Shown here: positions 43,969-48,534 of the stretch, in pieces
Position numbering within the stretch: the first letter of the stretch is position 1
Layout of the letters: each line of letters starts with the position of its first letter
Origin: Myxococcales bacterium
GTDB lineage: Bacteria; Myxococcota_A; Polyangia; Haliangiales; Haliangiaceae
Reading direction: 5' to 3'
Length of the DNA: 64,000 nt
Assembly: GCA_016707895.1 (NCBI GenBank)
Contig: JADJGV010000002.1
Location: forward strand, 399,695-463,694
Made by a program: the position numbers and the translations under genes
Notes under the pieces: model-generated
What the model saw: the letters and a program-made list of their open reading frames with translations, nothing else
The model's database searches: none
What the model was told of the DNA's origin: nothing

Positions 43969-44631
43969 ATGAGCATCGACCCCGTCACCGATGACGACCT
44001 GATGCTGCTCGCCCTCGAAGAGGCGCGCGCAGCAGGGGCCCATGGCGACGTGCCGGTCGGCGCGATCATCGCGGTGCCCACCGACGGCCGCTACGCGGTC
44101 ATCGGGCGGGGCCACAACCGCCGCGAGCAACGTGGCGATCCCACCGCGCACGCCGAGATCGAGGCGCTGCGCGCCGCCGCCGCCCACCTGGGCCACTGGC
44201 GGGTCGAGGCCACGCTGGTCGTCACCCAGGAGCCGTGCCCGATGTGCGCCGGCGCGCTGGTCAACGCCCGCGTCCGCCGCCTCGTCTACGGCTGCGACAA
44301 CCCCAAGGCCGGGGCCGTCGCCAGCCTGTTCACCATCTGCACCGACCCGCGCCTGAACCATCGGCTCGAGGTCGTCGCTGGCGTCCGCGCCGGCGAGTGT
44401 GCCGCCGAGCCCCCTCCGCGCGTGTTGATCCGTGCACCCGGTGCGCGGTGCGTGAGCCCGGGACGTTTTCCCGGGCGTGCTTCTGTAGTGTCTGGAGAGG
44501 TGACCGAGCGGCCGAAGGTGCACGATTGGAAATCGTGTGTATCGAAAGGTACCGAGGGTTCGAATCCCTCCCTCTCCGCAACGGTCACGACCGCGACGAT
44601 CGAGCTACACCCGATTTATGGTCCCGGGTGA
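43969..44631 (+). CDS. tadA: tRNA-specific adenosine deaminase (CDA fold); the annotated 3' end reads through the tRNA-Ser(GGA) gene
   Basis: HAEIEAL and PCPMCAGAL zinc-binding motifs. The core ends about ...AGECAA (near 44410). The ATG lies 4 nt after tRNA-Arg(ACG). Confidence 0.75.
   Translation: MSIDPVTDDDLMLLALEEARAAGAHGDVPVGAIIAVPTDGRYAVIGRGHNRREQRGDPTAHAEIEALRAAAAHLGHWRVEATLVVTQEPCPMCAGALVNARVRRLVYGCDNPKAGAVASLFTICTDPRLNHRLEVVAGVRAGECAAEPPPRVLIRAPGARCVSPGRFPGRASVVSGEVTERPKVHDWKSCVSKGTEGSNPSLSATVTTATIELHPIYGPG
44494..44578 (+). tRNA. tRNA-Ser (anticodon GGA)
   Basis: Acceptor GGAGAGG/CCTCTCC. Anticodon stem CACGA/TCGTG with loop TTGGAAA. Long variable arm. T-arm GAGGG-TTCGAAT-CCCTC. 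Confidence 0.85.
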
Positions 44632-44710
44632 CACGACGTCTGTGAACCCCGCCAGGTCCGGAAGGAAGCAACGGTAGCGGAACTAGTGGGTGCCTGGGGC
44701 CACTTTTCTT

Positions 44711-44748
44711 CGAGGGCGACTCTCACGAGTCGCCCTCGAGCTTTTTTC
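44711..44748 (+). terminator. Rho-independent terminator (perfect 12-bp stem, 4-nt loop, T6 tract)
   Basis: CGAGGGCGACTC-TCAC-GAGTCGCCCTCG followed by AGCTTTTTTC. Confidence 0.7.
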
Positions 44749-44874
44749 GGCGAGCGGCGGCGGGGCTAGCTGGCGGGTCGAAATCACCGGCCGAGGATGA
44801 TCTTGGCCGTTCGCCAGAACGTGGAATGTGACTGATGTGATAGCGTCGGTCTCGGACAAACGAGAGGACGGGCC

Positions 44875-46858: not shown

Positions 46859-47860
46859 GTGATGTCGATGGCCACTGCGTTCACCCGCCACGCCGGGGTC
46901 GAGGTGCCGCTGATCTGCGGCGCGATGTATCCGTGCAGCAACCCCGAGCTGATCGCCGCGGTGTCGGCGGCCGGCGGGCTGGGGATCATCCAGCCGATCT
47001 CGATGACGTTCGTGCACAAGCACGACCTGCGCGCCGGCATCCGCTGGATCCGCGCGCAGACCACCAAGCCGATCGGCTTCAACGCGATCGTCGAGAAGTC
47101 GTCGAAGGTCTACGAGGACCGGATGCGCAAGTGGATCGACGTCGCGCTCGAGGAGGGTGTGCGGTTCTTCGTGACCGCGCTCGGCGATCCGCGCTGGGTG
47201 GTCGAGCGGGTCCACGCGGTCGGCGGCGTCGTCTACCACGACGTCACCGAGCGCAAGTTCGCCGAGAAGGCGCTGGCCGGCGGCGTCGACGGGCTGATCT
47301 GCGTGAACCGGGACGCCGGCGGTCACGCCGGGTCGCGCTCGCCCGAGCAGCTGATGGCCGAGCTCGGCGACCTGGGCGCGCCGCTGGTGTGCGCCGGCGG
47401 CGTCGGCGACGCGGCGGCGTTCGTGCGCGCGCTCGAGCTGGGCTTCGCCGGCGTGCAGGTCGGCACGCGGTTCATCGCGACCACCGAGTGCAAGGCCCAC
47501 GACGACTACAAGCAGGCGATCCTGAAGGCGCGGCCGGCCGACATCGTGCTCAGCGAGCGGATCTCCGGCGTGCCGGTCGCGGTCATCCGCACGCCGTACG
47601 TCGACAAGGTCGGCACCCAGGCCAGCTTCCTGATGAAGCGCGCGCTGCGCCACCCCAAGCTCAAGCACTACGCGCGCATGTACTACAGCGTGAAGAGCGT
47701 CTTCGAGCTGCGCCGCGCGTCCTTGCAGGGCGTCAGCTACAAGGACTTCTTCCAGGCCGGCAAGAGCGTCGGCGGCATCGACGCGATCGAGCCCGCCGGC
47801 GAGATCGTCCGCCGCTTCGCCGCCGCCGCCGAGGCCGCCGCCGCGCGGCGCGCAGGCTGA
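46859..47860 (+). CDS. Nitronate monooxygenase / FabK-like FMN-dependent oxidoreductase (NPD family)
   Basis: TIM-barrel NPD motifs (PLICGAMYPCSNPELIAAVSAAGGLGIIQ; GGHAG; CAGGVGD...VQVGTRF). Confidence 0.8.
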   Translation: MMSMATAFTRHAGVEVPLICGAMYPCSNPELIAAVSAAGGLGIIQPISMTFVHKHDLRAGIRWIRAQTTKPIGFNAIVEKSSKVYEDRMRKWIDVALEEGVRFFVTALGDPRWVVERVHAVGGVVYHDVTERKFAEKALAGGVDGLICVNRDAGGHAGSRSPEQLMAELGDLGAPLVCAGGVGDAAAFVRALELGFAGVQVGTRFIATTECKAHDDYKQAILKARPADIVLSERISGVPVAVIRTPYVDKVGTQASFLMKRALRHPKLKHYARMYYSVKSVFELRRASLQGVSYKDFFQAGKSVGGIDAIEPAGEIVRRFAAAAEAAAARRAG

Positions 47861-47911
47861 GTGATGGTCCTGGCATCGGACCGAATTCGGGACTAAGATC
47901 GGCCCACTGCC

Positions 47912-48199
47912 ATGCGAACGCCGCGCGTCTCCGAGGACTTTGTCCCGATCAGCGAACTGAAGGCCCAGGCCGCAGAGTGGCTTCGTCGCATCGCCGAGAC
48001 TGACGCCCCGATCGTGATCACGCAGCATGGTCGGCCGGCCGGCGTCCTGCTCTCGCCGCAGGCGTTCGACGAGCTGACCGATCACAGCCGCTTCATGGCG
48101 TCGGTCAACGCCGGCATGGCCGACGCGCTGGCTGGCCGTGTCCACAGCCACGCCTCGGTCAAGGCGCGCTTCGCCAAGCGCGCACGTCGAAGCCGGTGA
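47912..48199 (+). CDS. Type II antitoxin, Phd/YefM family
   Basis: MRTPRVSEDFVPISELKAQAAEWLRRIAETDAPIVITQHGRPAGVLLSPQAFDEL. Confidence 0.8.
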   Translation: MRTPRVSEDFVPISELKAQAAEWLRRIAETDAPIVITQHGRPAGVLLSPQAFDELTDHSRFMASVNAGMADALAGRVHSHASVKARFAKRARRSR

Positions 48200-48534
48200 C
48201 GCGTCGTCGATCCGAGGGGCCGGTTGCGAGGCGGATCGACTGGACGGCGCGGGCCTTGGCCGATCTGGACGCGATCGCCGCATACATCGAGCGCGACGAC
48301 GAGGACGCCGCCCAGCGCTGGGTGCTTCGCCTGATCGAGGCAGCCGAGAAGGTGGCGACGCTGCCCGCCTCCGGGCGGCGTGTACCCGAGTTCGGGCGCG
48401 ACGATCTGCGCGAGGTGATCGTCGGCGCGTACCGAATCATCTACTGGATCCACGACGAGCACATCGAGATCGTCACGATCTTCGAGGGGCACAAGCGGCT
48501 GCGCCTGCCGGCGCGCGTGCGTGACCCCGGCTGA
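48196..48534 (+). CDS. Type II toxin, RelE/ParE family
   Basis: IDWTARALADLDAIAAYIE ... GAYRIIYWIHDEHIEIVTIFEGHKR. GTGA start/stop overlap with the antitoxin. Confidence 0.8.
   Translation: MTRRRSEGPVARRIDWTARALADLDAIAAYIERDDEDAAQRWVLRLIEAAEKVATLPASGRRVPEFGRDDLREVIVGAYRIIYWIHDEHIEIVTIFEGHKRLRLPARVRDPG

Follow-up and report, generated by a model that had tools for sequence, protein, structure and literature searches.

In the 64,000-nt window of contig JADJGV010000002.1 (Myxococcales bacterium) analysed here, the initial annotation had drawn attention to a 635-aa lipoprotein gene and a Phd/ParE toxin-antitoxin (TA) pair downstream of a tRNA-Ser(GGA) gene, and had suggested that the stretch 44580-48534 may be a single islet that integrated at the tRNA and was then stabilised by the TA pair. 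Our results are better accommodated by a model, which we consider likely to be correct, whereby the flagged genes are two separate accessory cassettes within a strain-variable hot-spot between ffs, the gene for the signal recognition particle (SRP, 4.5S) RNA, and dnaX; the modules of this hot-spot vary independently of one another and did not enter by integration at the tRNA gene. The variable region, five times larger than had been proposed, extends over 44.75-57.65 kb and takes in a PPK2 gene and a TcB/TcC-type RHS toxin gene. The corrected reading would be one of an ffs-anchored region of independently exchanged modules and not of one integration event; it does not overturn the current understanding of genome plasticity, in which the locus would be an ordinary hot-spot.

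The true left anchor of the variable region is ffs (44615-44709, plus strand), which matches Rfam model RF00169 with 63 bits against a gathering score of 40, over the full model (positions 1-97) and including the conserved GGAAGCA motif of domain IV. Among the relatives with which the window was compared (contigs and loci L001-L151, mostly from metagenomes), ffs is also detected in L001, L004, and L005, the last a metagenome-assembled genome (MAG). A terminator scan places an intrinsic terminator with a 14-bp stem, a 4-nt loop, and a T-run directly at the end of the gene (44709-44750, plus strand), and L005 has a comparable hairpin and T-run after its ffs. Thus the strong terminator noted previously at 44711-44748 is a real hairpin but belongs to ffs, a gene that had been missed. 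The tRNA-Ser(GGA) gene is present as annotated (44494-44579, plus strand; predicted by ARAGORN and by the Rfam tRNA model with 56 bits), but the lipoprotein gene does not lie immediately downstream of it, because ffs lies between the two. This tRNA is the last of a conserved cluster in the order Ser(TGA)-Ser(GCT)-Arg(ACG)-tadA-[Ser(CGA)]-Ser(GGA), and the same cluster is present in L004, L005, and L113. The right anchor is dnaX (57653-59506, plus strand), which is followed by ybaB (59499-59831) and recR (60777-61379), all three supported by Pfam. In the window, ffs and dnaX are 12.9 kb apart (approximately 44.75-57.65 kb), and the interval contains the lipoprotein gene, a gene for an NMO-family flavin oxidoreductase, the Phd/ParE pair, the PPK2 gene, and the TcB/TcC-RHS toxin gene.

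The left edge of the variable DNA is sharply defined. Contigs that are 89-99.8% identical to the window at the nucleotide level over the tRNA-tadA-ffs array lose all homology no more than 30 nt beyond the ffs terminator, and the blastn alignments of every close relative with different cargo end in a zone between 44752 and 44780 (at 44752 in L089 and L135, 44757 in L096, 44759 in L143 and L147, 44762 in L121, 44767 in L113, and 44780 in L133). These breakpoints lie past the ffs terminator and do not fit integration at the tRNA. Beyond them, at least five different cargos follow ffs: a 295-aa secreted protein with one or two 436-aa lipoproteins in L113 and L121, the latter also with MntA/HepT genes; a 230-aa lipoprotein in L089; an 880-aa toxin-like protein in L096; an array of immunity-like paralogs with an IS256 transposase in L133; and, in L004, a copy of the 635-aa lipoprotein with 82% identity, downstream of which lie truncated mntA and hepT genes. 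The lipoprotein cassette of the window is missing after ffs in L113, L121, L089, L096, L133, and L143.

That the flagged genes constitute two cassettes and not one is evident from a sister species represented by loci L132-L137, which encode an NMO protein 98% identical to that of the window and are 92-94% identical to it at the nucleotide level. These loci share with the window only the blocks 40558-41762, 43506-44410, 44410-44780, 46786-47860, 48528-50100, and 50105-55575 onwards; they lack 44781-46785, which holds the lipoprotein gene (44875-46782, plus strand), and 47861-48527, which is the TA cassette. The missing blocks coincide exactly with the two patches of low GC at third codon positions (GC3) described below. 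A comparison of synteny in close relatives, as suggested in the initial annotation, therefore bears out that the lipoprotein and TA genes are present in some strains, absent from others, and hence accessory, but they vary as two cassettes. The gene between them, NMO (46859-47860, plus strand; Pfam PF03060, 127 bits; shared block 46786-47860), stands inside the supposed islet and is nonetheless 93.7% identical at the nucleotide level and syntenic in the sister species, which lacks both flanking cassettes, which is incompatible with a single islet.

Base composition and codon usage follow the same division. The lipoprotein cassette has a GC content of 66.9% against 73.7% for the window, so that the reported drop in GC is real but amounts to 6.8 points rather than about 10, and the codons AAA, GAA, and ATT, which had been named as part of the signal, occur 0, 7, and 0 times, respectively, in the lipoprotein gene. 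More telling is the share of its codons that end in A or T, 12.6% compared with 1.8-3.7% in native neighbour genes. When GC3 was ranked over the 43 GC3-consistent open reading frames (ORFs) of the window (median 0.946), the lipoprotein gene was the 7th lowest (0.874; codon adaptation index (CAI)-like score 0.59), Phd the 4th lowest (0.833), and ParE the 8th lowest (0.876), while NMO, which lies between them, ranked 40th counted from the lowest (0.979; CAI-like score 0.84); the PPK2 and TcB genes have values of 0.966 and 0.969. The low-GC3 signal thus consists of two separate patches, the lipoprotein gene and the Phd/ParE pair, with the native-looking NMO between them. The lipoprotein, Phd, and ParE genes are atypical by GC3, yet they are not unique in the window. 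Their lower GC3 may reflect DNA that is accessory, fast-evolving, or once foreign.

The cassettes also part company in L142, which is 98.6% identical to 46829-50058 of the window and has the order NMO-Phd-ParE-PPK2. Upstream of NMO, however, L142 carries a different, minus-strand lipoprotein paralog of more than 501 aa, and from PPK2 it passes straight into the region upstream of dnaX (98.3% identity to 57580-58513), without the whole TcBC segment 50059-57579. L113 and L121 each join L142 through a 141-nt overlap with 100% identity, and the same TA pair therefore coexists with different cargo next to ffs. Both this arrangement and the fate of the pair in the sister species contradict the proposal that the TA pair stabilised the islet: L142 has the same Phd/ParE genes but not the 635-aa gene upstream of NMO, with joining contigs that differ at ffs, and in the sister species NMO and PPK2 persist, while the TA pair between them has lost ParE by deletion and is left as a 3' relic of Phd. 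The locus offers a clear-cut natural case of a type II TA pair failing to stabilise the neighbouring DNA and decaying via deletion of the toxin gene.

At a greater distance, the interval is short or absent. L005, a Kofleriaceae MAG with a SerRS 67% identical to that of the window, is the nearest genome among the matches listed in a contig scan anchored on serS; it shares the tRNA-tadA-tRNA-ffs array and continues from ffs, approximately 70 nt later, directly into homologs of dnaX (76% identical to window dnaX), ybaB, and recR. In L005 and L126, dnaX starts approximately 70-180 nt after ffs. When metagenome contigs were searched for a 41-nt motif of ffs, 47 loci emerged, in about 25 of which ffs is followed by one small lipoprotein gene (270-390 aa) and then dnaX. 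Because ffs and dnaX are adjacent or separated by one gene in these family-level relatives, the 12.9 kb of the window are lineage-specific. Among the matches listed, Sorangium and Polyangiales loci lack the tRNA/ffs cluster. The small lipoprotein, found in L086, L094, L099, L103, L106-L112, L115, L123, L125, L127, L130, and others, has a low-complexity middle rich in Ala, Gly, and Lys, and its C-terminus (...QAKQICETLAL) is conserved. The window contains no homolog of this small protein, and we rejected it as a homolog of the 635-aa protein (blastp E>1).

We propose that, in this uncultured Kofleriaceae-like myxobacterium, a variable region has been wedged into a conserved array that runs from the tRNA cluster through tadA, tRNA-Ser, and ffs to dnaX, ybaB, and recR. 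It would comprise four modules: (A) a slot next to ffs for genes of secreted proteins or lipoproteins, occupied in the window by the 635-aa lipoprotein gene; (B) a backbone of native codon usage formed by NMO and PPK2; (C) the Phd-ParE pair between NMO and PPK2, which would be older than the split from the sister species and would have decayed there since; and (D) the TcB/TcC-RHS toxin module that adjoins dnaX. The modules would be swapped by homologous recombination between conserved flanks (tRNA/ffs, NMO, PPK2, and dnaX) and not by site-specific integration, with a probable contribution of insertion sequence (IS) elements in some strains; IS256, IS3, and IS21 genes are found in sister-species versions of the locus. 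Such a locus resembles known gene-flux hot-spots, that is, plasticity regions flanked by core genes and often by tRNA, tmRNA, or stable-RNA genes: the flanks (tRNA cluster, ffs, and dnaX) are conserved, near-identical strains hold non-homologous cargo in one slot without an integrase of its own, and surface proteins, toxins, TA modules, and IS elements abound in the cargo. It differs from them in that the anchor is ffs and not a tRNA, and in that the locus has a nested structure, in which NMO and PPK2 part three or more sub-slots that vary independently, as far as can be judged from evidence that comes entirely from metagenome contigs.

Several points weigh against this model. While gene identities, breakpoints, presence and absence, and composition were observed as such, recombination was deduced from the conserved flanks and the missing signatures of integration. 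The relatives are metagenome contigs, and the linkage of L113 and L121 to L142 rests on one shared 141-nt overlap in the assembly graph. The low GC3 of the cassettes could stem from weak expression rather than foreign origin, and several unrelated genes of the window have similar values. Finally, part of the pattern could be due to differential loss of genes from an ancestral locus of larger size, and the TA relic proves that at least one loss took place.

Taken to its conclusion, this last point becomes an alternative in which nothing was imported, and old lineage-specific genes were differentially lost, their low GC3 being due to low expression or relaxed codon selection. We regard this as unlikely. 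It would account for the finding that each sufficiently long haplotype has one member of the lipoprotein family (E 1e-44 to 1e-47), for the Phd relic, which shows that the TA pair was ancestral and then lost, for the GC3 of 0.77-0.91 in other secreted-protein genes at the locus, and for the lack of a close ParE homolog outside the genus (best at most 58% identical). Yet the 12.9 kb must have been gained at some time, given that ffs and dnaX are adjacent or one unrelated small lipoprotein apart in family relatives; contigs that are 98-99.8% identical hold non-homologous cargo in the same slot, for which replacement is needed and loss alone does not suffice; and the lipoprotein gene is a mosaic in comparison with L004. 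An artefact of assembly, with the contig a chimera of metagenomic sequences, is hardly credible: a 130-nt gap at 44410 and a frameshift in TcBC are both missing from other assemblies, but two independent assemblies reproduce the arrangement of the window, L105 (JGI) with 99.88% identity over 44410-51958 and L001 (NCBI) with 100% identity over 44487-47204, and L142 confirms both the NMO-TA-PPK2 order and the junction with dnaX.

Site-specific integration has to be considered in two forms. tRNA genes are classic integration sites, and a single eroded islet at 44580-48534, integrated at tRNA-Ser(GGA), deprived of its integrase, and kept by Phd/ParE, would be in keeping with this general property, with the atypical GC3 of the lipoprotein and TA genes and their absence from the sister species, and with the absence of an integrase. 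As stated in the initial annotation, no integrase is encoded by the ORFs scanned in 38.5-63.3 kb, and Pfam scans of the main ORFs in this range detected no integrase, transposase, or recombinase domains. We nevertheless consider such an islet very unlikely, since ffs and its terminator part the tRNA from the cargo, every breakpoint (44752-44780) lies beyond that terminator, the NMO gene in the middle of the islet is native in composition and has a syntenic counterpart in the sister species, L142 combines an identical TA pair with other DNA upstream of NMO, and the pair decayed in the sister species while its flanks stayed. The predicted direct-repeat remnant of an att site is likewise missing, in that neither the 3' end of the tRNA nor that of ffs is repeated elsewhere in the window; when 44480-44800 was compared with the remainder of the window by blastn-short, the only hits were the T-arms of paralogous tRNA-Ser genes and chance matches of at most 14 nt. 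The locus is similar to tRNA-integrated islands in having lower-GC accessory DNA near a tRNA cluster that is variably present among relatives, and differs from them in the absence of an integrase or att repeat, in the insertion after the ffs terminator, and in having two non-adjacent atypical patches only. The other form would be the eroded remnant of an element that targets ffs, either a Tn7-like or CRISPR-associated transposon (CAST) or a temperate phage. Use of ffs as an att site is documented for type I-F3b CRISPR-associated Tn7-like transposons (PMC11406308), TniQ-directed Tn7-like elements (PMC11014353), and the Enterococcus phage phiEf11 (PMC12540744), and in the window the cargo starts 45-70 nt past ffs. 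We find this origin highly improbable, as the window and the examined gene tables of relatives contain no tnsA/B/C, tniQ, Cas, integrase, or phage genes, and as the breakpoint is the end of the ffs terminator, that is, the first unconstrained sequence. Moreover, across 43.4-58 kb and at the cassette ends there are no att-like repeats, terminal inverted repeats, or target duplications; repeat searches of 43.4-58 kb gave only the internal FG-GAP/RHS repeats and chance GC-rich matches. The likeness to I-F3b CAST/Tn7-like elements and phiEf11 lies in variable DNA within or tens of bases past the SRP RNA gene; the differences are that the haplotypes examined have no transposition, CRISPR, or phage genes and no element ends, and that the host belongs to another phylum, the Myxococcota. 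An 8-nt match, CGGGGCTA, found after the ffs terminator and again before dnaX, could be the trace of a duplicated dnaX -10 element; it was set aside as too short to count.

Our assignment of the TA pair agrees with the initial annotation, in which an NPD oxidoreductase gene is followed by a complete Phd/YefM-RelE/ParE module with overlapping GTGA; Pfam and sequence concur on this. The antitoxin Phd/YefM (47912-48199, plus strand; 95 aa) matches PF02604 with 55.7 bits against a cut-off of 29.8 and TIGR01552 with 44.4 against 20.8, and the ParE/RelE-superfamily toxin (48196-48534, plus strand; 112 aa) matches PF05016 with 65.9 bits against 23 and TIGR02385 with 33.5 against 27.9. The GTG start codon of ParE overlaps the stop codon of Phd in the 4-nt GTGA, and a 10-nt perfect palindrome, CCGAATTCGG, can be read at 47881-47890 in the 51-nt spacer upstream of Phd. 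This putative operator is the only hint of autoregulation of the operon. The pair is therefore like other type II TA systems in its two small co-directional genes with the antitoxin first, in the 4-nt overlap, in matches of both proteins above the curated cut-offs, and in the palindrome of the upstream spacer; it differs in that the toxin class, judged by sequence alone, may be either ParE-like (gyrase) or RelE-like (mRNase), and in that identity to homologs outside the genus does not exceed 58%. The ParE protein is identical in L142. With the nearest ParE homologs outside the genus at no more than 58% identity, there is no sign of recent transfer from a sampled donor.

The history of the pair can be read from the sister species. 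The TA cassette is missing or present only as a relic in L132-L137 and L143-L150, and in L133 and L143 the spacer between NMO and PPK2 retains the last approximately 30 codons of Phd joined to the region of the ParE stop codon, with ParE deleted. The pair therefore predates the split from the sister species, and, judging from this relic, the toxin gene was later deleted and the antitoxin gene truncated in the sister lineage. We suggest that it acts as a selfish addiction module, in which ParE would poison the cell unless Phd is continuously made, and which would leave its neighbours unguarded. A second, different TA module is eroding at the same locus in L004, where downstream of the lipoprotein gene (3542-3766) there remain the 3' part of an mntA-like nucleotidyltransferase antitoxin gene and the 5' part of a hepT-like toxin gene; L121 has the two genes in intact form (5421-6217).

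The 635-aa lipoprotein gene has no match in Pfam or NCBIfam. Its classification as a lipoprotein holds: the N-terminus (M..SRTLFLASMIVAAGG-C27) is a signal peptide that ends in a lipobox with Cys27 as the predicted lipidation site, and G26 and C27 are invariant in an alignment of four homologous sequences. Eight more Cys residues are conserved besides C27, which suggests a protein that is extracytoplasmic and disulfide-bonded. A confident structure model based on a 100-sequence alignment (pLDDT 87.2, pTM 0.81) predicts a disordered tether with 15 consecutive glycines, a helical TPR-like domain at approximately 110-490, and an OB-like beta domain at 514-633. The 15 glycines of the tether are encoded by a (GGC)n tract (44985-45029), which has 11 in the 82%-identical L004 homolog and may be a length-variable repeat. 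In comparison with L004, the gene is a mosaic, its 5' third being 47-70% and its 3' half 90-97% identical at the nucleotide level, and the N-terminal third of the protein is hypervariable. Altogether, these features point to a disulfide-rich, lipid-anchored binding protein of the envelope, probably combining a TPR-like solenoid with an OB-like barrel and hypervariable in its N-terminal third.

A word-based search found four homologs of this protein, and a profile search of 1.84 billion representatives found 647 relatives at E<=1e-3 and 190 at E<=1e-30; given these 647 representatives, we dropped the idea of a near-orphan. Profile searches of PDB sequences gave no match, and the names of the cluster members carried no taxonomic information on the family. 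The lipoprotein thus appears, by sequence comparison, to represent a sizeable, uncharacterised family without a Pfam model or a relative of solved fold, and the family, now delimited, is a candidate for structural or functional study. L133_540, L143_545, and L142_501 match the A2 profile of the lipoprotein with E-values of 1e-44 to 1e-47; the minus-strand lipoproteins of 540-590 aa in other haplotypes are of the same family, and every haplotype that is long enough to judge has one member. It is tempting to speculate that the ffs-dnaX interval is dedicated to the exchange of surface lipoproteins and polymorphic toxins by recombination, and that the family of approximately 550-650-aa lipoproteins is the partner (anchor, exporter, receptor, or immunity protein) of TcB/TcC-RHS toxins that lack TcA, although we think it quite unlikely. 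The presence of a family member in each judgeable haplotype and the hypervariable N-terminal third are compatible with such a role, as is a 43%-identical homolog that lies two genes upstream of a 2212-aa TcBC fusion in the unrelated contig L002. On the other hand, L142 has the lipoprotein without TcBC, and the homologs in L151 and L003 are found in housekeeping contexts, so that the evidence for a link between the lipoprotein and the RHS toxin is mixed.

The remaining genes of the interval are NMO and PPK2, which form its backbone, and the genes adjoining dnaX. NMO, a native-looking backbone gene, is 93.7% identical at the nucleotide level in L132-L137, L143, and L147 and 98.6% identical in L142. 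In the more distant Kofleriaceae/Myxococcales MAG loci L138 and L139-L141 (NMO 88-91% identical) it is not near ffs and is followed by Tox-REase-9 polymorphic-toxin genes, so that NMO adjoins toxin loci in several lineages. The PPK2 gene is located downstream on the minus strand, as annotated, with support from Pfam and TIGR03708 (720 bits); it encodes a two-domain polyphosphate:AMP phosphotransferase of 513 aa (48543-50084) and is 93.8% identical at the nucleotide level in the sister species and 98.6% identical in L142. A 616-aa ORF previously taken for ppk2 is over-extended, the gene being 513 aa long with a gene for a 121-aa membrane protein opposite (50122-50487, plus strand). The latter is homologous to the 121-aa gene that precedes TcBC in L133, and it lies upstream of the toxin gene in the block 50105-55575, which is 92.4% identical to L133.

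The TcB/TcC-type RHS toxin gene (50659-57578, plus strand) has the Pfam domains SpvB, FG-GAP, and TcdB_toxin_midN as well as RHS repeats; the RHS core reads ...YYDPALGRFLSADTMIPDLANPQALNRYAFAYGNPIVNADPTGH and ends with DPTGH, has an aspartyl autoprotease motif, and is followed by a variable C-terminal domain rich in transmembrane (TM) segments. This domain (56760-57578) starts with approximately 90 hydrophobic, TM-like residues and has no Pfam or NCBIfam match. The gene is split by a frameshift near 55230 (55200-55260) into ORFs 50659-55302 and 54888-57578; the RHS repeat continues past the frame change, and the sister-species gene is uninterrupted (2319 aa; L132-L134). The frameshift, at a position that no independent assembly spans, marks either a pseudogene or a sequencing error. 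No immunity gene follows the toxin gene, as dnaX begins 75 nt past its stop codon, and the scanned ORFs of the window include none that is TcA-like or has a TcA-like domain. With SpvB, FG-GAP, TcdB_toxin_midN, RHS repeats, a DPxGH core, and a variable C-terminus, the module resembles the TcB-TcC RHS cocoon and polymorphic RHS loci, and its sister-species versions hold arrays of immunity-like paralogs and IS elements; it differs from Tc-toxin B/C components in the lack of a TcA-like gene, in the frameshift, and in the lack of a downstream immunity gene. The array in L133 (3322-5988; also in L132 and L134-L136) consists of three tandem paralogs of 248, 255, and 200 aa with near-identical C-terminal residues (approximately 90) and resembles the orphan immunity or toxin-tip arrays of polymorphic toxin loci. 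An IS256-family transposase lies beside these paralogs and is interrupted by IS3 in L132 and L136, and IS21 genes are present in L134 and L135.

The window otherwise has the gene content expected of Myxococcota: Ser/Thr kinases, sigma-54 activators, and ECF sigma factors are numerous. Within the tRNA cluster, the window lacks, at a junction at 44410, 130 nt that are found in L113, in L004, and in the near-identical L105. The gap removes the last 14 codons and the stop codon of tadA together with nearly all of tRNA-Ser(CGA), and because of it the tadA ORF runs through tRNA-Ser(GGA) to 44631; at such a genome GC content UCG is a major serine codon. The gap reflects either an error of the assembly or a deletion that happened very recently. 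The sole transposase-like match in the window is a 254-aa ORF at 20876-21640 with a weak IS200-like Y1_Tnp domain (30 bits), 24 kb from the flagged interval. A second variable spot (41763-43505) lies to the left of the tRNA cluster, between it and serS (40458-41747). The two minus-strand hypothetical genes located there (418 aa and 129 aa) are missing from the sister-species locus L133, which has a 161-aa lipoprotein gene in their place, and L121 has a homolog of the 418-aa gene with 91% amino acid identity. To the right of dnaX, a 274-aa ORF (59913-60737; GC3 0.935, no Pfam match) separates ybaB from recR, which are adjacent or nearly so in L005 and other family-level relatives, and this ORF may be a further small lineage-specific insertion.

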